Shown piece by piece: positions 896-54,067 of a stretch of 64,000 bases of DNA. Position 1 is the stretch's first letter; each line of letters begins with the position of its first letter. The position numbers were made by a program, and so were the translations under genes. The stretch is from an uncultured Gammaproteobacteria bacterium. GTDB lineage: Bacteria; Patescibacteriota; Microgenomatia; Woykebacterales; RBG-16-39-9b. Below the pieces are notes generated by a model, which saw nothing but the letters and a program-made list of their open reading frames with translations, searched no databases and was not told the origin of the DNA. The DNA lies in assembly GCA_964367355.1 (NCBI GenBank), contig CAYIWY010000001.1, forward strand, positions 35,307-99,306, written 5' to 3'.

Positions 896-962
896 GGAAA
901 TACTCAGGCGATTATGGAAACATGGTCGCCTCTTCTTTTACTCTCAATACACCCCATAGCAC

Positions 963-991
963 TTGACAAGAGGCCTATAATGTGCTATACT
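963..991 (+). promoter_or_regulatory. sigma70-like promoter P2: TTGACA, 17-bp spacer, TGcTATACT; it faces into GC-rich island A
   Basis: Consensus -35 at 963-968 and extended -10 at 983-991. Homologous to P1, with shared blocks catagca, cacttg, ctata and aatgtgctatact. Confidence 0.5.
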
Positions 992-1132
992 AATTTACGT
1001 AAGGTTAGAAAAGAACAGAAGGAAGCGAGGGATTTTTTGGTACCTAAAACCTCAACACTATAAGACATAGTATTGAGATTCTAGAAACCACCAGAAGTGC
1101 GGTTCTCTAGCGGTTCAAGGAGGTTTGTCCCC

Positions 1133-1321
1133 GTGAAGACAGTCAATGGCGTGCGCTACCCGACCCCGAGCGCTTCGGCCCAAGCAGCATTCAGGGCTCA
1201 GGTTCGGCAATCGTCGGCGTCCACTCGGCTCCCGAATCTCGGTAGGTTCGGTCGGGTCGAGATCGTGCGCAGCGCAGAGGACATCCGGTCCCTTCGCGAC
1301 GACGGTCACCGGCACCAGTAG
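1133..1321 (+). CDS. possible small GC-rich protein (62 aa), uncertain
   Basis: Strong SD AAGGAGG lies 8 nt upstream of GTG 1133. GC3 is much higher than GC1/2, consistent with real coding in GC-rich DNA. However, random ORFs of this length are common in 65% GC sequence. Confidence 0.25.
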   Translation: MKTVNGVRYPTPSASAQAAFRAQVRQSSASTRLPNLGRFGRVEIVRSAEDIRSLRDDGHRHQ

Positions 1322-1780
1322 TTCTCACAGACACGCAGCCATGAGGGGGAGTTTGACTAGGCGAAAGCTGAAAATCAAACTCCCCCACCAGAAATAGTGG
1401 AGGTGACTTGGTACAAATTTAGCCATAACCCGAGATGGCGCAAACATAAGGGACGGCTCGGTATCAGTGCAAAATAAGCACGAAACCGTCCCCTAAATTC
1501 TAATCACTACGAACTTGGCTGGAGAGAGGTTCAAAGGGAGGTGAATATTATTTTACCCTCTTACTTTCAGCCAAATTCGTGAGGATTAGGTTCATTTCAA
1601 GAAAGGATTTCATTTTGGCCTAGTCGGCGCCCTTTGACAATTTAAAGCAATCAGGAAACCGAGCAGTCCAGCTCGTCACCCACTTTAGGTGGTAGTGAAA
1701 CACATTTTTGTGTGTAGCCAGGCAGAGAAGGACACCTTGAACTCTGCTTGAAGACAGTTTAGTAGTACGGAGGAATATCG
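1322..1780 (+). other. GC-rich, highly structured non-coding leader or candidate ncRNA upstream of the zinc-ribbon gene
   Basis: There is a perfect 12-bp inverted repeat GGGGGAGTTTGA..TCAAACTCCCCC at 1343-1384. A 7-bp stem GGGACGG..CCGTCCC sits around 1449-1496 with a nested GTGC..GCAC hairpin. An imperfect long stem GGCTGGAGAGAGG..CCTCTTACTTTCAGCC follows. No credible ORF is present. The stretch ends at the GGAGGA SD for the 1781 gene. Confidence 0.35.
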
Positions 1781-2617
1781 ATGTCACGCAAGCCCAGTAA
1801 GTCCCCGGCAAATGGAACTCCGGAAGCTGCGGATCTGTCCGCCGCCGATCCGAAGGACGGAAATGCTGACACCAGCGTCGCCGTCGCCACCCAGGACCCG
1901 CAGGCTGCGGAGGACGTCAACGCTCGCGAGTGCGAGTTCTGCGCCATGGTCATGCCAGCGGATTCCAAGGACCCGGCCTGCCCAATGTGCTTCCGGGACA
2001 ATCGGTTGTACATCATGCTCCGGTTCCTGGCGGCGAAGGGGCAGACGTACTGCAACGCCGTCCACGATGGCAAGCGCTGCGAATACGTACTGAACATGAG
2101 GTCGGACGGCAAGGACGTCTTCTGCCCCATGGACAAGGCGGATCGGGCGATCTTTGCGGCCGAGCGAAAGCTCCGCGAAGAGGCACCGACAACGGAAGCG
2201 CAGGCCAAGCTCGCTGAGGCGAAGGGCTTCTTCAACGGTGGGGACGACTGGAAAGCGCTCAAGGCGGCCAATCAGGTCTTCGATCTGCAGGCCAAACCCT
2301 TCGTCGAGGAGGGGCTTTCCAACCTGGTCGAGGCCGAACTCGGCCCGCTGGCACGTGCTGCTTACGATGAGGCTGTCAGCTTCGTCGAGCACGGCCAGTA
2401 CGTCCGCGCCAGCGAGTGCGTCGTGAGCATGAAGAACATCATGCCGCGCGAGCGCATGCTCATCGCCCATGGCGAGCGCCTGTCGAAGACCGATCAGCAG
2501 CGGCGGCAGCGGACCCACAGTCCTGACGTCGAGGACAACCTCGGCAGGATCAAGGGTTTCCAGCAGCGAGTCGCTTCTCACGCTCACGCCGGCAACGACG
2601 AGGACGGCGAAAACTAG
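1781..2617 (+). CDS. hypothetical Ala/Glu-rich protein with an N-terminal multi-Cys zinc-ribbon-like motif (CEFC..CPMC..C..C); GC-rich, likely foreign
   Basis: SD GGAGGA lies 7 nt upstream of the ATG. Cys pairs CxxC and CxxC are 12 aa apart, with three further Cys. The long antisense ORF 1784-2587 is a GC-artifact. Confidence 0.6.
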   Translation: MSRKPSKSPANGTPEAADLSAADPKDGNADTSVAVATQDPQAAEDVNARECEFCAMVMPADSKDPACPMCFRDNRLYIMLRFLAAKGQTYCNAVHDGKRCEYVLNMRSDGKDVFCPMDKADRAIFAAERKLREEAPTTEAQAKLAEAKGFFNGGDDWKALKAANQVFDLQAKPFVEEGLSNLVEAELGPLARAAYDEAVSFVEHGQYVRASECVVSMKNIMPRERMLIAHGERLSKTDQQRRQRTHSPDVEDNLGRIKGFQQRVASHAHAGNDEDGEN

Positions 2618-2752
2618 CGCACCGCAATAGCGACGCGCTCAACAACCATCCAGATTCGGATTGAAGCTGGGTGTGAAATGAAAGGTAACCTCACATGAAG
2701 TGACGTTACTTCGAACAATCTCAGCCTCGATTTATCGAGCAAATAGCTGAGA

Positions 2753-2812
2753 GGGGAGGGTTTCGAACTTGTTCATCATGAACAGGCGCGAACCCTCCCT
2801 TTCTCTTTTTTA
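2753..2812 (+). terminator. Rho-independent terminator with a nested hairpin and a T-run
   Basis: GGGGAGGGTTTCG..CGAACCCTCCC is an 11-bp stem with one bulge. It encloses an inner TGTTCATcATGAACA palindrome and is followed by TTTCTCTTTTTT. Confidence 0.7.
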
Positions 2813-2925
2813 ATCACCTTTCTTTCAGACGAAGAAAGGTTTTTTTGTTTCCAATAATAGCAAGAAACTTGACTTCGAGGCCAAATATGATATTATAGGG
2901 CAGTAGTTACCCACAAATTGGAAAA

Positions 2926-3351
2926 ATGGGTAAAGGAGTTGGGATATTGGAAGTACAGTGCGCAGCTGACATTTTGGAAACTAGAGTCAGACTTAATGGC
3001 AGTATAATCTGCGAGGCAAAAAACTCATATCTGGAAACGAAACCATTAAGAACCTGGGCACGGATGGCCTCCGACCAACATTTCCCAGAATTGGGAAATG
3101 CACTATCTGAATACTATGGATCGATATTCAGATATGTGAAAGGCGCACGTAACAAGCTTTTCACTGGGTCGCTAACTCGCAAGGAAGCGCTTTTCGGCGA
3201 GTATGGGCCTTATGGAGAAAATCATGAAGCTTTGGTTACTTTCAACCGAATGATAGATAGTTTGGTGGTGGTAACCTACCAAGATCTCTCTGCGGAAGAT
3301 TTTGACTACGTGAAAAAGATTTTACAACAAATTGGATTGAGAGAAATTTAA
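2926..3351 (+). CDS. hypothetical protein
   Basis: 141-aa ORF with host-like GC. No recognised motifs. Confidence 0.45.
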   Translation: MGKGVGILEVQCAADILETRVRLNGSIICEAKNSYLETKPLRTWARMASDQHFPELGNALSEYYGSIFRYVKGARNKLFTGSLTRKEALFGEYGPYGENHEALVTFNRMIDSLVVVTYQDLSAEDFDYVKKILQQIGLREI

Positions 3352-48928: not shown

Positions 48929-48958
48929 TTGACAGAAACTATAGGACTGTAGTATATT
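48929..48958 (+). promoter_or_regulatory. AT-rich sigma70-like promoter TTGACA, 18 bp, TATATT, facing GC-rich island D
   Basis: Seen directly. The GC jump begins at about 48966. Confidence 0.5.
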
Positions 48959-49005
48959 GTTGCGCGCCAGCCTATAATCCATTTCGATAAAGAAAGGAAC
49001 TGCCC

Positions 49006-49788
49006 ATGGTTACTGCCACAGCCGCAAAGAACGGCGCATCTGCCGAACCTGTGACATCGCGCCGCGACACTCGCGCCAGCAAGGTTTCGGCGGTCAAGAC
49101 AGAGCAATCGTCCAAGTCCAACACGGGTTGGATGCACGTCAGGATTCACTGTGTCGGGCGCACCCCCCTGCTGATGGATCCCATGACTGATGGGACCATC
49201 GAGGAGCTGGAAACTGGGGTTCGCAAGCCGATCAACAAGCAACTGACGCGTTACCAGGTCTGCGAACCCAAAGTCATGCACAATGCTGCTGGCTTGATCG
49301 CGGTCCCCATCGACAACTTCTTCGCCTGCACTGTCGAGGCCGGCCGGAGAATCCCGTTTCAGAAGATGAGCAAGATGAGTACGGCTACCAGCACGACTTT
49401 GCCGGAGTACTTCCGCTTCATCTCGGAGGATCTGGTACTACTCGACAATAAGGGTAAGCCACTGCCGGACTGGGACGGGAAGTCGAAGAACGGCAGCTGG
49501 AGCGTCGATGTGCGCCGTGGTTGTCTCAAGGATGGCACGGCTGTGCCGATCCGGCGGCCGAAGTTCGACCACTGGGAATTCGATGTCGAGTTCGAGTATG
49601 ACATGGGAGTCATCTCGGACCAGAAGCTTCTCGATCTGATCAAGATCGCCGGCACGACCATGGGGCTGTGCAGCTTCCGGCCGAACAAGAAGGGTCGCTT
49701 TGGCACCTTTGCGATGACGCGCTGGGAAGAGATCGCTCGCCGTGAACAGGATACCGAGGTTGAGATAGTCAGGTTGAAGGCCGCGTAA
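49006..49788 (+). CDS. hypothetical protein (island D gene 1), GC-rich; possible glycine-rich loop near the C-terminus
   Basis: SD AAAGGAA. 260 aa. Low-complexity N-terminus. C-terminal GTTMGLCSFRPNKKGRFGTF is loosely reminiscent of a RAMP/Cas6 G-rich loop; this is speculative. Confidence 0.55.
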   Translation: MVTATAAKNGASAEPVTSRRDTRASKVSAVKTEQSSKSNTGWMHVRIHCVGRTPLLMDPMTDGTIEELETGVRKPINKQLTRYQVCEPKVMHNAAGLIAVPIDNFFACTVEAGRRIPFQKMSKMSTATSTTLPEYFRFISEDLVLLDNKGKPLPDWDGKSKNGSWSVDVRRGCLKDGTAVPIRRPKFDHWEFDVEFEYDMGVISDQKLLDLIKIAGTTMGLCSFRPNKKGRFGTFAMTRWEEIARREQDTEVEIVRLKAA

Positions 49789-49847
49789 CAACAAAGGGTG
49801 ACGTACAGTACGTTTCGTTAGGTTGGCACAACTGCACTGTCGTCATT

Positions 49848-49899
49848 TGCACTACAGGGTGGGGAACTAGGAGTCAACTTCTTTTTCCCCACCAAAACT
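49848..49899 (+). terminator. hairpin GGGTGGGGAA..TTCCCCACC plus T-run after gene 1; its 5' arm resembles the array-unit head
   Basis: CAGGGTGGGG is shared with unit R10. Followed by AAAACTCTTTTTTGG. Confidence 0.5.
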
Positions 49900-50042
49900 C
49901 TTTTTTGGTGGTTTGGTATCGGAATAAATTTCGTTACTAGAGCATCAAAACAAATACTTGGAGAAGATCAATCCAGAGTTGGGCCAAGCATTGTGGACAT
50001 ACCTGCCCTTTCGTCTACTGCTGCCCACTCCGCTGCGTCATG

Positions 50043-51304
50043 GGGCTGGATCCGATTATCGCAAGACGATCGGATCTGCCGACACTAACTACCTCGGCGT
50101 TGATGAGTGCGTTTCACTGACGTGAACTGCTTTGCACTTTAATGCGCTCGAGTTAAGTAGAGGGCTGGGGATCCGGAGAGAAATCAAAGGATCTCTGCCA
50201 ACCTTTTGTTTTCAAGTAGCCTGGGGCGGACTTCATAACAGTGGAGTTTCCTGGGGTCACCTGCAGGGCTGGGTTCCGAGAGGAAACAATCGGAACCTGC
50301 CACCTTGTTGACGGACTAAGCTGACGTTCAGTGTCGAACCGTTCGGTTCAGCACGCTCACGTGCGTCAGGTTTTAGTGGGGTGCAGGGCTGGGGGTTTCC
50401 TTGGGAAACTAGGGAAACCTCTGCCAACCAATGTTCGGTGCGCAGTTACCTCTCGTATTGATCGCCTTCCTGCTGTTGGCTACTCTGTCGTTTGGTGACC
50501 TGCTGTAATCTGAAGGGCTGGGTCCGTTTACAGAAATGTATCGGACTTGCCAAATTTGTGGTCTAGGGTGCGGTTTGGTTAACTCCACTAGCGTGCGGAA
50601 AACTGGCCTACACCTAACTGACGTCAGGGGCTGAGGACCCGGAGAGAAATCAAAGGGTCTTTGCCAACAAACTCAATTCGTTCCCCTGCTGTGAAGATGG
50701 CTTAACTTCAGTTAAGTTCTCCTTACTTACGTGGGGTATCGTGGAGTATGGGGCTGGGGATTTGCTCTGGAGAAATCTATTCAAGTCCCTGCCAACAACT
50801 TAAGTTGAACTTAGCTGCAGCTGACTTCTGTTCGCTGGGCTATTGTTACGTGCAGGGCTGGGTCCGTTTACAGAAATGTATCGGACCTGCCAAACCAATT
50901 TTGATGAATTGATTCTGAAAACATAAATTTCAAAACCAGCTCATCAGGGTTTTGAGAGAGTTATCAAGTGCGCTAGACCACTGTTCCCTAAAGCACCCAA
51001 GGGTTCAGCCCACTTTCGTGGTCTTCGCAATGGTACTGGGCTGGGGACCCGGAGAGAAATCAAAGGGTCTCTGCCAAAACGCTTTCAACTTAGGTACTGT
51101 ACCCCGTTCTTCGGTAAACAGTCCTGTCGCATTGTTTAGGGCTGGGGAGTTGGTTAACTTTGGTTTTCTAACTCCCTGCCAACCGAATTAGATTTTCGAG
51201 GGGTAGTGTTGTGTATGGCAGCGTCATGCTCCGTCTGCTTCAGTACACCAGGTTGCCCCATAGTTCAGGACTGCCCCCGATGTTTCGAAAGAATTATCGG
51301 GGGT
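50043..51304 (+). repeat. array I of structured repeat units with the pattern CAGGGCTGGG, variable hairpin, CTGCCAAC (11 units)
   Basis: Units: 50043-50083, 50162-50202, 50266-50304, 50386-50428, 50515-50554, 50628-50668, 50751-50796, 50855-50894, 51038-51080, 51138-51182, plus a degenerate unit at 51261-51304. Stems of 5-7 bp covary (GATCC/GGATC against GACCC/GGGTC; GTCCG/CGGAC; GGATCTG/CAGATCC; GGTTTCC/GGAAACC). Loops usually contain AGAAAT. Inter-unit segments are unique and 60-184 bp long. There is no ORF. Confidence 0.85.
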
Positions 51305-51365
51305 GTCATTTTTCAATATTTACCTAAAAAATTCTGTCCCATTTTGTAACAAGGCACTTTAACAA

Positions 51366-53213
51366 GTGACAAATAGTAAAGGAGAGGGGACAACAGTGCC
51401 TTCATCGCAACATCGTGGTAGGCCTTCTTTCGAGGAGCTTACCTCCGCCTGGCCAAGGCGGCGACTTGGACCCATGTGGTCCGAACAAGAAGAAGCCTTT
51501 GAGGTCATTGCCAAACATGGCAGTTGTACCTTGGAGGTACCGACTGGTATGGGCAAAACCGCTATCGGTTACACGACGCTCAAGGCGTTGGGCAACCGTG
51601 GTGAAGGCCCACTTTTCTACATCGTGCCGACCAAAACTTTGGTTGGACAGGTAGCTGAGATGTTTCCAGACGTCACTCCGGCCTATGGTCGGAATGAGTT
51701 TGATTGTCTCTACTACGACGAGCCGTACAAAGCGGACGAAGTCCCTTGCCTGCTATTGCAGGACTGTGTCCATCGGGTCGATCAAGAGACTGGCCGGACT
51801 GCTGGTCGAGGAGCAGAACGTTGCCCCTACTACCACGCCAAGTACCAAGCCAAACGCGATCCGAGTCGGATCGTAGTCTGCTCGATGTCGTTTTACCTTT
51901 TCACCCAGCTTTTCTCCAAGGAGTTTGAGAATCCAGCTGGTTTGGTGATCGACGAAGTTCAGCAGATGCCAGATGTGGTCCGTAATGCTCTGTCTTTTGA
52001 CATCACGGACTATCAGTTGCAACGGGCGATCAACCTACTGTCAACCACAGCTGCGGATGAAGCTGCTGGTCTCGAGATCTTTCTCGATACTATGTTGCGG
52101 ATCATTCGACTCAAGCCTTCGAAGGTGCCGGTAATGCTCGAAGATGTCGAGTTGCAGGAACTGCTGTTGGTCTTGCGAGATATTGACCGCGATGGTCTGC
52201 GTCGCAAGATCGCCGAGGGTATCCGCTCGGGCGACATTGATGTCGTCAAAGAGCGAGAAGTCCTGACCAAAGTTGAGCGACTGGTCTATGACCTGTACCG
52301 TTACGTGCGAGCGTTTGAATTTTCGCTCAGCAACGAAACACAACGGCCACTCAACTACACCTACGCAGTTTGGGACAAAGAACCAGCTGAGGGCAAAAAG
52401 GTCCACAACAAGCTGACCGTCAAGTCCTACTACGTCGCGCCGGTGATCAAGAAACTGCTGTCAGCCAATCTGACAGTGAGTTTGGGAGCGACTATCGGCG
52501 ACCCGAACGTGTTTGGTTACGAGTCAGGGATCGATCCGAGGCGAACGCCGATGTTCACTTTTGACTCGAGTTTTCCGGTCGGCAACACCCGGATCTACGT
52601 TCCGTCGGACTCCTTTAGCTTGGCGGAAAAAGAGGTCAAAAATCGTGGTAAAGCCACAATGGTCCGTCGGATGGTTCGCTCGGCCAAAACCTTCAACCAA
52701 AAAGGTGAGCGCGTGTTGTGCTTGGTCGTCTCTGACACCGAGCGGCAGCGCTTTATTCGGATGGCCACTGAAGACGATGTCAACTTCATCACTTACGGTG
52801 ATGGCGTGACCGCGCGCGAAGCTGCGGACCGCTTCCGTGCCGGAGAGGGTAAAGTCCTGCTTGGGACAGACGCCCAGTACGGCCAGGGTGTTGACCTGCC
52901 AGACGGTATCTGTCGGGTGATCTTCTACCTGCGACCCGGTTATCCGCGACCAGATGATCCTCAGACCCAGTTTGAGGAAAAGCGTTTTCGCTCACAGAAG
53001 TGGGCAATCTGGCAGTGGCGACTGATCATGAAGGCGATGCAGGTGCGCGGTCGTAACATCCGTGGTCCGGAAGACAGGGGAGTGACGATTTTCTTCGACA
53101 GCCGTTTCCGGCGTTTCCTTTTCGGAGGGATGCCCAAGTGGCTCCAGCCGTCATATCGTGGAGATCTGACACTGCAAGAGTGCATTGAGGACGCGCTCAA
53201 GGTGTTGAAGTAG
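51366..53213 (+). CDS. Rad3/XPD/DinG-family SF2 helicase with an Fe-S domain (island D gene 2)
   Basis: Walker A TGMGKT. Four Cys lie between motifs I and II (CLYY, PCLLL, DCVHR, ERCPYY). Motif II is VIDEVQQM (a DEAH-like DEVQ). The C-terminal LLGTDAQYGQGVDLPDG and QVRGRNIRGPEDRGVTIFFDSR match DinG motifs V/VI. An alternative start GTG 51396 has SD AAGGAGAGGGG. Confidence 0.8.
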   Translation: MTNSKGEGTTVPSSQHRGRPSFEELTSAWPRRRLGPMWSEQEEAFEVIAKHGSCTLEVPTGMGKTAIGYTTLKALGNRGEGPLFYIVPTKTLVGQVAEMFPDVTPAYGRNEFDCLYYDEPYKADEVPCLLLQDCVHRVDQETGRTAGRGAERCPYYHAKYQAKRDPSRIVVCSMSFYLFTQLFSKEFENPAGLVIDEVQQMPDVVRNALSFDITDYQLQRAINLLSTTAADEAAGLEIFLDTMLRIIRLKPSKVPVMLEDVELQELLLVLRDIDRDGLRRKIAEGIRSGDIDVVKEREVLTKVERLVYDLYRYVRAFEFSLSNETQRPLNYTYAVWDKEPAEGKKVHNKLTVKSYYVAPVIKKLLSANLTVSLGATIGDPNVFGYESGIDPRRTPMFTFDSSFPVGNTRIYVPSDSFSLAEKEVKNRGKATMVRRMVRSAKTFNQKGERVLCLVVSDTERQRFIRMATEDDVNFITYGDGVTAREAADRFRAGEGKVLLGTDAQYGQGVDLPDGICRVIFYLRPGYPRPDDPQTQFEEKRFRSQKWAIWQWRLIMKAMQVRGRNIRGPEDRGVTIFFDSRFRRFLFGGMPKWLQPSYRGDLTLQECIEDALKVLK

Positions 53214-53287
53214 AGAGTCAACCTGTGGCCTAGTCAAGTTAACCGAGCTGTTCTGTGGTGACTTGATGTCGGCTATTCAATTGCACA

Positions 53288-53882
53288 GGGTGGGGATCTG
53301 CTCTGGAGAAATCTATCCAGATCCCTGCCATTTTCTTTTTTCAACGAGTGCAGTTAGGCAGACAATGTCATTGTCCTGTTTACCTAACTGGTGTTCGCTG
53401 CAGGGCTGCCTCGATAAAACCGAAAGGATTTATCGGGGCGCCATTCTTTTGATAGTTTAATTTTGGAAATATTTTCAAAACTAGCCTATCAAAGAAAAAC
53501 GATATGGTATTCTTTTGTCGACGCGGCGGTCTTCAGTTCGCTAGCCCATGCTGCCGTTCGGTAGAGTCGGGAACGCTAGAGAGTACTGAACCGCAGTATG
53601 GGGCTGGGAACCTGCTCTGAGTAATCATCAGGTTCCTGCCAACGTTCACTTTCGTGCGGTTCAACAGCGTAGGGACTCGCCAACTGTGGTAAAGTTCTCT
53701 ATTGTAGTGTTAACCGCGCTGGTCTAAAGGGCTGGGGATCTGCTCTGGAGAAATCTATCCAGATCCCTGCCAATTTCACAAACTGACTCAAGCAGGGCCA
53801 TGTCCACAGGAGTTAGGTGGCCTGCGCTTTTGTCTAGTTTAGGGCTGGGTCCGATTTCAGAAATGTTTTCGGACCTGCCAAC
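53288..53882 (+). repeat. array II of the same structured repeat units downstream of the helicase (5 units)
   Basis: Units: 53288-53331 (ends CTGCCAT), a degenerate unit at 53403-53444 (similar to 51261-51304), 53601-53643, 53729-53774, 53842-53882. Units 50751-50796, 53288-53331 and 53729-53774 form one family. Units 50515-50554, 50855-50894 and 53842-53882 form another. Confidence 0.85.
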
Positions 53883-54067
53883 TCAATTTCGGCGGGATTC
53901 AAGTTTTTATTAACTTGGTCCCGCTTTTTCTTTTACCAAATTTTGTTTCGAGATTGAAAATGGTATTATAATAAGAGACGATCTGCCAAGATACCGCGTT
54001 AAATGTAATTTAGATAAATTAAGAACTATTTTATGCGCGCGATATTTCGTCATCTAAAACTGCCAAA

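Follow-up and report, generated by a model that had tools for sequence, protein, structure and literature searches.

The 64-kb window studied here is the whole 64,000-nt stretch of contig CAYIWY010000001.1 that was analysed. It contains, on its + strand, a 459-nt spacer (1322–1780) between an open reading frame (ORF) of 62 aa and an ORF encoding a 278-aa zinc-ribbon protein. On comparative sequence evidence from seven lineages, this spacer is a chain of RNA hairpins that is selected at the RNA level on the + strand. It probably acts in cis as a post-transcriptional control region of a bicistronic mRNA, which would combine ribosome docking with gating of the second gene's ribosome-binding site (RBS). 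The operon, referred to as island A, comprises the following elements:

963–991, + strand: sigma-70 promoter, TTGACA-17-TGcTATACT (11/12 match, TG-extended); the sole strong + strand promoter before the operon
1025–1089, + strand: conserved 5' module; GCGAGGGAUUUUUUGG, then an extended hairpin, then GAGAUUCUAG
1133–1321, + strand: small GC-rich ORF, 62 aa; GTG at 1133 behind the Shine–Dalgarno (SD) sequence AAGGAGG (1117–1123); open from 1097; GC content at third codon positions (GC3) 0.75
1345–1386, + strand: hairpin 1; 12-bp base stem rich in purines, internal loop rich in A, GAAA tetraloop on a 3-bp tip
1387–1497, + strand: clade-specific block; CCAC/GUGG hairpin with a second GGAGGUGA (1399–1406), GCCAU/AUGGC (1422–1439) and GGGACGG/CCGUCCC (1450–1492)
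1499–1590, + strand: P1, long irregular hairpin; tip with the SD mimic GGGAGGUGAA (GGAGGUGA at 1537–1544), no canonical start codon behind it
1591–1656, + strand: variable linker from P1 to the 3' hairpins; weak small hairpins; the least conserved part, with a length that varies by lineage
1657–1761, + strand: P2–P5; P2 1660–1675, P3 1676–1698 (loop UUUAG), P4 1699–1715, P5 1719–1750, then a conserved GUUUAG
1762–1787, + strand: P6, RBS hairpin; 5' arm GUAGUA, SD GGAGG (1769–1773) in the loop, 3' arm formed by the start-codon region (A)UGUCAC
1781–2617, + strand: 278-aa zinc-ribbon and helical-bundle protein; ATG at 1781, SD GGAGG (1769–1773) 7 nt ahead; GC3 0.81
2618–2848, + strand: 3' untranslated region (UTR) with two intrinsic terminators, a hairpin at about 2749–2806 with a U-run (to about 2811) and one at 2816–2840 with a U-run (to 2848)

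The order of elements on the + strand is thus promoter, 62-aa ORF, spacer, zinc-ribbon ORF, and terminators. No + strand promoter or terminator was found inside the spacer or anywhere between the promoter at 963–991 and the zinc-ribbon gene. The homologous loci likewise have one strong promoter, with terminators only after the second ORF. Accordingly, the spacer is the intercistronic leader of a bicistronic mRNA. An earlier note on this DNA had described a GC-rich leader of roughly 460 nt. The length agrees with the 459 nt determined here, but the composition does not: at 45.5% GC, the spacer is the GC-poor middle of the island, between ORFs of 63–65% GC. Nor is the spacer, strictly speaking, the simple 5' UTR that the note had considered, since the coding 62-aa ORF lies upstream on the same transcript.

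Seven distinct lineages, the window included, were compared; they fall into three clades. These are the lineage of the window itself (L001–L008, all the same strain; ERZ1292616 and others), L015 (GCA_964364815.1), L019 (SRR28401833), L013, which equals L017 (GCA_001816725.1), and the remaining three: L014/L018, L011/L016, and L012. Metagenome loci were retrieved with a sub-alignment of the protein family. Between the window and L015, identity is 0.88 in the spacer, 0.67 in both the small ORF and the zinc-ribbon ORF, and 0.76 at the end of the AddB gene. Between the window and L019, the corresponding values are 0.89 for the core spacer, 0.78 for FemAB, and 0.77 for the downstream hypothetical gene. 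The spacer is conserved more strongly than AddB/FemAB (0.76–0.79) and than the flanking ORFs (0.67). A coding role of the spacer was rejected: close relatives differ by several 1-nt indels, and neither strand contains a conserved ORF.

The 474-nt stretch that was folded reaches −152 kcal/mol, better than 100 of 100 dinucleotide shuffles (z = −5.1), which agrees well with the highly structured leader described earlier. For the window clade (window, L015, and L019), RNAalifold gave a consensus of 88 pairs, with 98.1% of the cells paired versus 34–46% when the partners were slid by 1–3 columns. Six pairs in this clade are changed on both sides; among the variable pairs, 22 are kept and 5 broken. 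In 500 shuffles, the pairing, the number of double changes, and the covariation score always stayed below the observed values. The consensus of the L013/L018 clade has 101 pairs, with 100% of the cells paired versus 35–47% when slid; 5 pairs are changed on both sides, and all 26 variable pairs are kept (0 broken). The consensus energies of the two clades are −78.5 and −120.4 kcal/mol, versus column-shuffled means of −30.5 and −39.5 kcal/mol (z = −10.9 and −17.7). The reverse complements fold worse (−62 versus −78.5 and −69 versus −120.4 kcal/mol), and the + strand consensus has 26–28 pairs including G–U, which becomes A·C on the other strand. This asymmetry in energy and G–U pairing identifies the selected object as an RNA read from the + strand; a minus-strand RNA and a DNA palindrome were rejected on these grounds. 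MAFFT was unable to align the hairpin arms between clades, and covariation across clades is a helix-by-helix comparison, not a column-wise statistic. Judged from these alignments, the spacer helices are maintained by compensatory and G–U-compatible substitutions. The earlier note would have been refuted by an Rfam match to a known family or by a lack of conservation of the structures in homologous loci. No such match was found, and the structures are conserved there with compensatory changes, so a structured functional RNA is supported.

P1 was identified in 7/7 lineages, as a hairpin of 90–115 nt with about 30–40 paired positions in each; in the window it corresponds to the long imperfect stem of the earlier note. 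The arms are unrelated between clades (CUAAUC..UUGGCUG.., UUGGUAGCUAGGGA..GCUCGGGG.., and CAGGGA..GCUCAGGAA..), and the pairs are preserved through substitutions. In the helix beside the tip, aligned positions switch from G–C to C–G and from A–U to G–C between clades, as read by eye and with no statistic attached. The tip carries GGAGGUGA exactly in all seven lineages (7/7), with AAGGAGGUGA in four of them and AAGGAGGUGAU in L018. The canonical 3' end of bacterial 16S ribosomal RNA (rRNA), the anti-SD, is the exact complement of AAGGAGGUGA; the canonical form was assumed here, as the organism's own 16S rRNA is not in the window. The SD mimic is located 105–240 nt upstream of the zinc-ribbon start across lineages, and no AUG, GUG or UUG occurs within 4–12 nt downstream of it in any of them. 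The octamer GGAGGUGA has three occurrences in the 64-kb window, two of which are in the spacer (1399 and 1537). P1 therefore displays the sequence hallmark of a stabilizing SD (STAB-SD) element, being SD-like, complementary to the 16S rRNA 3' end, and remote from a start codon that it does not serve. Also, it provides a duplex of about 20 bp or longer between cistrons, as in intercistronic RNase III sites, and is a candidate for such cleavage. The P1 stalk may dock 30S subunits, either as a standby site or as a STAB-SD-like stabilizer on a long processed transcript.

The hairpins P2–P6 follow each other in the same order in the five lineages with a long spacer. P2 reads CGAGC-AGUCCA-GCUCG in the window and CGAGC-AGYCCW-GCUCG across lineages. 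P4 is fully covarying (ACACA/UGUGU versus CCCGAC/GUCGG), and in P5 (GGCAGAG/CUCUGCU versus AGCAGGG/CCCUGCU) one A–U becomes G–C between clades. In 4/5 lineages, P6 forms between its 5' arm and the zinc-ribbon gene's start codon with the codons that follow, and the real SD is left in the loop. This is the SD that the earlier note had placed ahead of the 278-aa ORF. The arms are GUGCCA/UGGCAC in L013 and L018, GUGGCAU/AUGCCAC in L019, GUGGUG/UGCCAC in L015, and GUAGUA/UGUCAC, with one A·C mismatch, in the window; the C–G to G–C swap in L019 is coupled to an Ala-to-Pro codon change. P2–P6 would gate initiation at the zinc-ribbon gene, possibly via alternative pairings or a bound protein, with the product of that gene as one candidate.

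Hairpin 1 contains the perfect 12-bp stem seen earlier, GGGGGAGTTTGA/TCAAACTCCCCC at 1345–1356/1375–1386, and folds at −26 kcal/mol (z = −6.3). The same design recurs as a module immediately behind ORF stops, once each in the window and L015 and at two places in L019, with 3–4-bp tips closed by a GNRA tetraloop: GGC-GAAA-GCU, AGC-GCAA-GCU (twice), and GAGU-GAAA-ACUC. Analogous designs are present in L013 and L016. Located after each upstream ORF, hairpin 1 may be a 3' stability or insulation element of the upstream cistron. The clade-specific block that follows is shared with L015 only, in nearly identical form, and is absent from L019, L013, L018, and L016. It includes the previously noticed 7-bp stem GGGACGG/CCGTCCC (1450–1456/1486–1492) with its nested GTGC/GCAC hairpin. 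The second GGAGGUGA lies 4 nt ahead of a 4-codon mini-ORF, UUG GUA CAA AUU UAG; this arrangement (1399–1422) is kept in L015 (UUG GUA AGA AUU UAG). The mini-ORF may encode a leader peptide or be a coincidence, with two near-identical sequences to judge by.

Several observations weigh against a control region that docks ribosomes and gates the RBS. Folding of the window clade predicts that most of the SD mimic pairs with the downstream ACCCUC, and docking would need opening of the tip. P6 of the window is weakened by its A·C mismatch and is not predicted to be stable. The covariation statistics are weak, with seven lineages in three clades and 2–3 sequences per clade, and the scored structures were derived from the same sequences. 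A function of the block 1387–1497 is without covariation support, as there is only one near-identical relative.

The earlier note had left the choice between a riboswitch-like cis-regulator and an independent noncoding RNA (ncRNA). A cis-regulator is better supported, because one conserved promoter lies upstream of the first ORF, no + strand promoter or terminator lies inside the spacer, and P6 pairs with the start codon in 4/5 lineages. Its riboswitch nature is unproven, and an independent ncRNA is unlikely unless it is released by processing. Among the alternatives, the first to be considered is a protein-binding autoregulatory leader, in which the hairpins would be bound by the zinc-ribbon protein, or by the small upstream one, and translation of the bound protein itself would be repressed, in the manner of ribosomal-protein leaders. 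Control of this type typically targets an RBS hairpin, and the zinc-ribbon protein combines two Cys clusters with a helical bundle and, in homologs, a basic tail. The leader is always accompanied by the protein; this holds even for L019, whose protein has a replaced middle part. Yet no RNA-binding domain is recognizable by Pfam, PDB fold search, NCBIfam or PHROGs, and adjacency is the sole tie between the protein and the RNA. Autoregulation of this kind is possible but rather unlikely as the explanation; it overlaps with ribosome docking and RBS gating by the spacer and would not exclude them.

The L013 clade contains four mutually complementary segments (CGAGCAG / CCCUGCUCG / GAGCAGGG / CCCUGCUCG), which permit two exclusive folds with the pairings 1:4/2:3 and 1:2/3:4. 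A riboswitch, with P2–P5 as an aptamer that switches between these pairings to open or close the RBS, could account for them. It would also fit the stretches CCGAGCAG, UUUAG, and GUUUAGUG, which are invariant across clades among the few sequences available. This interpretation is unlikely: the alternative fold is clear only in the L013 clade and poorly supported in the window clade, no Rfam aptamer matches, the downstream gene is neither metabolic nor that of a transporter, and sizeable portions of the spacer are present in some lineages and absent in others.

A stable ncRNA released by processing, for instance a ribosome-binding or sponge RNA acting in trans via the SD mimic, would suit the long near-continuous duplex of P1, which is of the type cut by RNase III, the maximal complementarity of the mimic to the anti-SD, and the better conservation of the spacer relative to the ORFs. 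We regard it as very unlikely, since the spacer has no promoter or terminator of its own and the number and order of its modules vary by lineage, as befits cis modules rather than one discrete RNA. Disfavoured most of all, and highly improbable, are DNA-level, attC-like recombination sites for the exchange of GC-rich ORF cassettes: hairpins do follow each ORF stop and the ORFs between the conserved modules are swapped for non-homologous ones across lineages, but the pairing is strand-asymmetric with many G–U pairs that a DNA palindrome does not need, no integrase or recombinase domain occurs in the neighbours that were scanned or had precomputed Pfam hits, R''/R' cores were not seen by eye (no pattern search was run), and the RBS hairpin and SD mimic are left unexplained.

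The survey for known RNA families with Rfam 15 covered the 64-kb window at the gathering score, the region 900–3000 with E values allowed up to 10, the leaders at five homologous loci, and a second GC-rich island of the window, island B. The families covered include riboswitches, ribosomal-protein leaders, and large ncRNAs such as OLE, GOLLD, ROOL, HEARO, and raiA. Three transfer RNAs (tRNAs) were the only matches in the window at the gathering score, and the region 900–3000 gave only sub-threshold noise of microRNA and small RNA families. The leaders of the five homologous loci yielded nothing. ARAGORN reported no tRNA or transfer-messenger RNA (tmRNA). The earlier failure to match the leader by eye to RNase P, signal recognition particle RNA, tmRNA, 6S RNA or B12 motifs is in line with this result, as no Rfam family matches the leader in the window or in the homologous loci.

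Both ORFs flanking the spacer are coding. The 62-aa ORF and its counterpart in L015 share 32/57 identical aa and differ by 21 synonymous codons, with third-position changes dominating; this pattern indicates true coding. The + reading frame of this ORF (GC3 0.75) and of the zinc-ribbon ORF (GC3 0.81) is confirmed by their GC3 peak; six typical genes of the window have values of 0.30–0.46. The 278-aa protein contains the CxxC-x12-CxxC motif reported earlier and four, not three, further Cys residues (8 in total). The protein has two Cys clusters, and the homologs possess a strongly basic tail. The AlphaFold (AF2) model (predicted local distance difference test score, pLDDT, 74) has small strands of the zinc-ribbon type and a helical bundle, with the N-terminus disordered. 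No fold match was found for it in the PDB by Foldseek (best E 1.1), and Pfam, NCBIfam, PHROGs, and PADLOC gave no profile match. The family is very rare, with 7 matches among 1.84 billion representatives, two of which are halves of one frameshifted gene.

Several origins and roles were considered for island A and rejected. For a phage origin, tblastn and blastn searches against 50,697 phage genomes gave no match, nor did PHROGs for the island A proteins. The 17-nt leader motif had 50 matches in IMG/VR, about the number expected by chance according to our estimate, and none was accompanied by other leader motifs. A defence system was not indicated by PADLOC, which gave nothing for the island A proteins. 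For diversification of the diversity-generating retroelement type, a template/variable repeat pair was not found, and the neighbouring genes examined contain no reverse-transcriptase domain.

In every member with context, the operon occupies a shared slot. It is preceded by an AddB-like helicase-nuclease and then a small hypothetical gene, and followed by a hypothetical gene of about 135–170 aa and then FemAB on the opposite strand. The annotated neighbours are the AddB-like helicase-nuclease, FemAB, 3D/G5, UvrD, and two domainless hypotheticals. A recent horizontal island or an assembly chimera was rejected, as the same operon and slot recur in seven lineages and, for the window strain, in independent assemblies numbering about a dozen. 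In L019 (1–2911), the AddB-like helicase-nuclease carries an intein (Pfam Hint/Intein_splicing) that is absent in the window strain. A related Saccharimonadales metagenome-assembled genome (L009, 10994–11779, − strand) has a different 261-aa ORF of about 60% GC adjoining FemAB. It encodes a double zinc-ribbon (Pfam DZR, Zn_Ribbon_1) without sequence similarity to the zinc-ribbon protein of the window, and the contig ends 16 nt upstream of it.

The first ORF of the operon changes with the lineage and is non-homologous between clades. It has 62–65 aa in the window and L015, 47–66 aa in L013, 24 aa (CxxC..CxC) in L018, and 145–156 aa in L016. The first ORF of L019 (122 aa) is homologous to that of L016 and different from that of the window. 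Behind it come, in this order, hairpin 1, the 5' module that contains GAGAUUCUAG, an extra GC-rich ORF of 40 aa, a second hairpin 1, and the core leader. The downstream protein of L019 (378 aa) shares with the zinc-ribbon family only the N- and C-termini. The 5' module that bears GAGAUUCUAG is thus located before the first ORF in the window and after the first ORF in L019. Its hairpin, with the inner stem CUCAACACUAU/AUAGUAUUGAG at 1051–1061/1067–1077 in the window, recurs with different sequences in L013, L018, and L016, and stands before an internal ORF in L019. The 3' UTR is also conserved, with 87% identity between positions 2670–2944 of the window and L019. A counterpart of the promoter at 963–991 is present in L015, L013, and L019, and, by reading of the sequence, in L018. 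By this comparison, promoter, RNA modules, and 3' UTR form the constant parts of the operon, and the GC-rich ORFs its variable parts.

Two further observations concern promoters. A 13-nt sequence, AATGTGCTATACT, which is the extended −10 region, is identical at 475–487 and 979–991; the first copy belongs to the promoter of the hypothetical gene upstream, the second to that of the island operon. An insertion in the linker of L019 (4352–4385) creates TTGACA-17-TATAAA just 5' of P2, which may be an internal promoter specific to that lineage; the rule used for promoter scanning (T at −10 position 6) does not flag this site.

The window has 40.8% GC, with most 1-kb bins at 35–42%. Island A consists of three parts with about 65% (1100–1340), 45% (1340–1780), and 65% GC (1780–2640). 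In all lineages, the operon ORFs have about 50–70% GC and the spacers about 40–55%; the host background is 44–47% GC overall in the three homologous loci long enough to show it. The operon ORFs hold a GC3 of about 0.75–0.81 in genomes of GC3 about 0.37, across lineages with about 30–45% protein identity. The sequence comparison shows this anomalous composition to be a syntenic feature that persists across lineages. Selection on the mRNA, repeated transfer, and biased conversion are candidate causes of the high GC3. Contigs with the same genes originate from Hainich groundwater (ERZ1292616, a 187-kb contig), and the nearest named relatives are labelled Candidatus Saccharimonadales and Candidatus Woykebacteria of the Candidate Phyla Radiation (CPR)/Patescibacteria. 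The host is an ultra-small, low-GC, Saccharimonadales-like CPR bacterium of groundwater.

More speculatively, and with little probability in our estimate, the spacer could be part of a dedicated CPR expression platform, in which one promoter and low-GC RNA modules serve interchangeable GC-rich ORFs slotted between them. The modules would be the 5' hairpin, the GNRA-tipped hairpin after each ORF, the stalk with its perfect 10-nt complement of the anti-SD, and the RBS gate, and they would recruit ribosomes to, and protect, a transcript that the cell otherwise expresses poorly. The codon usage of the cargo (GC3 0.75–0.81) is foreign to a 38–44% GC genome, across lineages whose proteins are about 30% identical. 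The fast-evolving cargo would then serve host interaction and could conceivably be adapted to a partner of high GC (actinobacterial). If true, such a platform would represent a new class of ribosome-docking RNA.

Island B (48,930–53,900), with 50–60% GC, has a promoter-like site at 48929–48958. Its 260-aa ORF (49006–49788; GC3 0.76) has a PHROG of unknown function as the sole match. A region of about 1.45 kb (49,800–51,365) lacks ORFs of 80 aa or more and is followed by a gene for a 615-aa helicase (51366–53213), which matches the PADLOC profile 'typeIV_DinG, CAS-IV-A associated' over nearly its full length (E = 3e-44). The ORF-free stretch and the 3' flank contain the recurring sequence GCAGGGCTGGG at irregular spacing of 120–390 nt, including two 65-nt units that are 83% identical; these repeats are not a canonical CRISPR array. 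Island B gave no Rfam match and contains none of the RNA motifs of island A.

CPR/Patescibacteria account for a large share of bacterial diversity, yet to our knowledge almost no regulatory RNAs are known from them. The element described here is a conserved, structured mRNA element of 290–460 nt. Its signal for ribosome binding is unusually explicit, in that a stalk presents a perfect SD mimic with no start codon behind it. It is embedded in a compositional puzzle, namely a vertically syntenic operon whose ORFs, with GC3 near 0.8 in genomes of GC3 about 0.37, are swapped while the intervening RNA is kept. The element has a narrow known range of seven lineages, and further loci could be sought with a covariance model built on P1 and P2–P6. 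If docking or stabilization by P1 holds true, the STAB-SD/standby principle would extend to a new phylum and to intercistronic positions.

Among known systems, the STAB-SD of Bacillus thuringiensis cry3Aa (Agaisse and Lereclus, 1996) is described, in the passage on it in PMC12970973, as an SD-like sequence remote from the start that protects a stable mRNA processed from a long primary transcript. The spacer is similar in having, on a long primary transcript, an SD-like sequence that lies far upstream of the start codon (105–240 nt) and does not serve initiation; by analogy, 30S binding and protection of the downstream mRNA may be proposed for it as well. Unlike the cry3Aa element as outlined there, the mimic in the spacer is longer (8–11 nt of complementarity), sits on the tip of a 90–115-nt hairpin in an intercistronic position and not in a 5' UTR, is partly self-paired in the window clade, and belongs to a CPR host (PMC12970973).

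Ribosome standby sites and translational-operator leaders, such as those of ribosomal-protein operons, share with the spacer a structured region before the gene and a helix at the start codon and SD. Unlike ribosomal-protein operon leaders, the spacer matches no Rfam leader, is larger (core of about 290 nt, 459 nt in total), and is modular. Early mRNAs of phage T7 contain intercistronic RNase III hairpins. These resemble the spacer in being long irregular hairpins between cistrons of one transcript, directly after ORF stops, but the spacer has no phage relationship, its apical SD mimic has no T7 counterpart, and its cleavage is putative. Like integron cassette arrays, the operon combines a fixed platform with a promoter and variable, compositionally foreign ORFs, each followed by an imperfect palindrome; unlike them, it has RNA-like (strand-asymmetric, G–U-containing) pairing, only 2–3 ORFs, and no integrase in the neighbouring genes examined. 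The spacer matches no catalogued RNA family and, by mechanism, is closest to STAB-SD/standby elements and translational-operator leaders.

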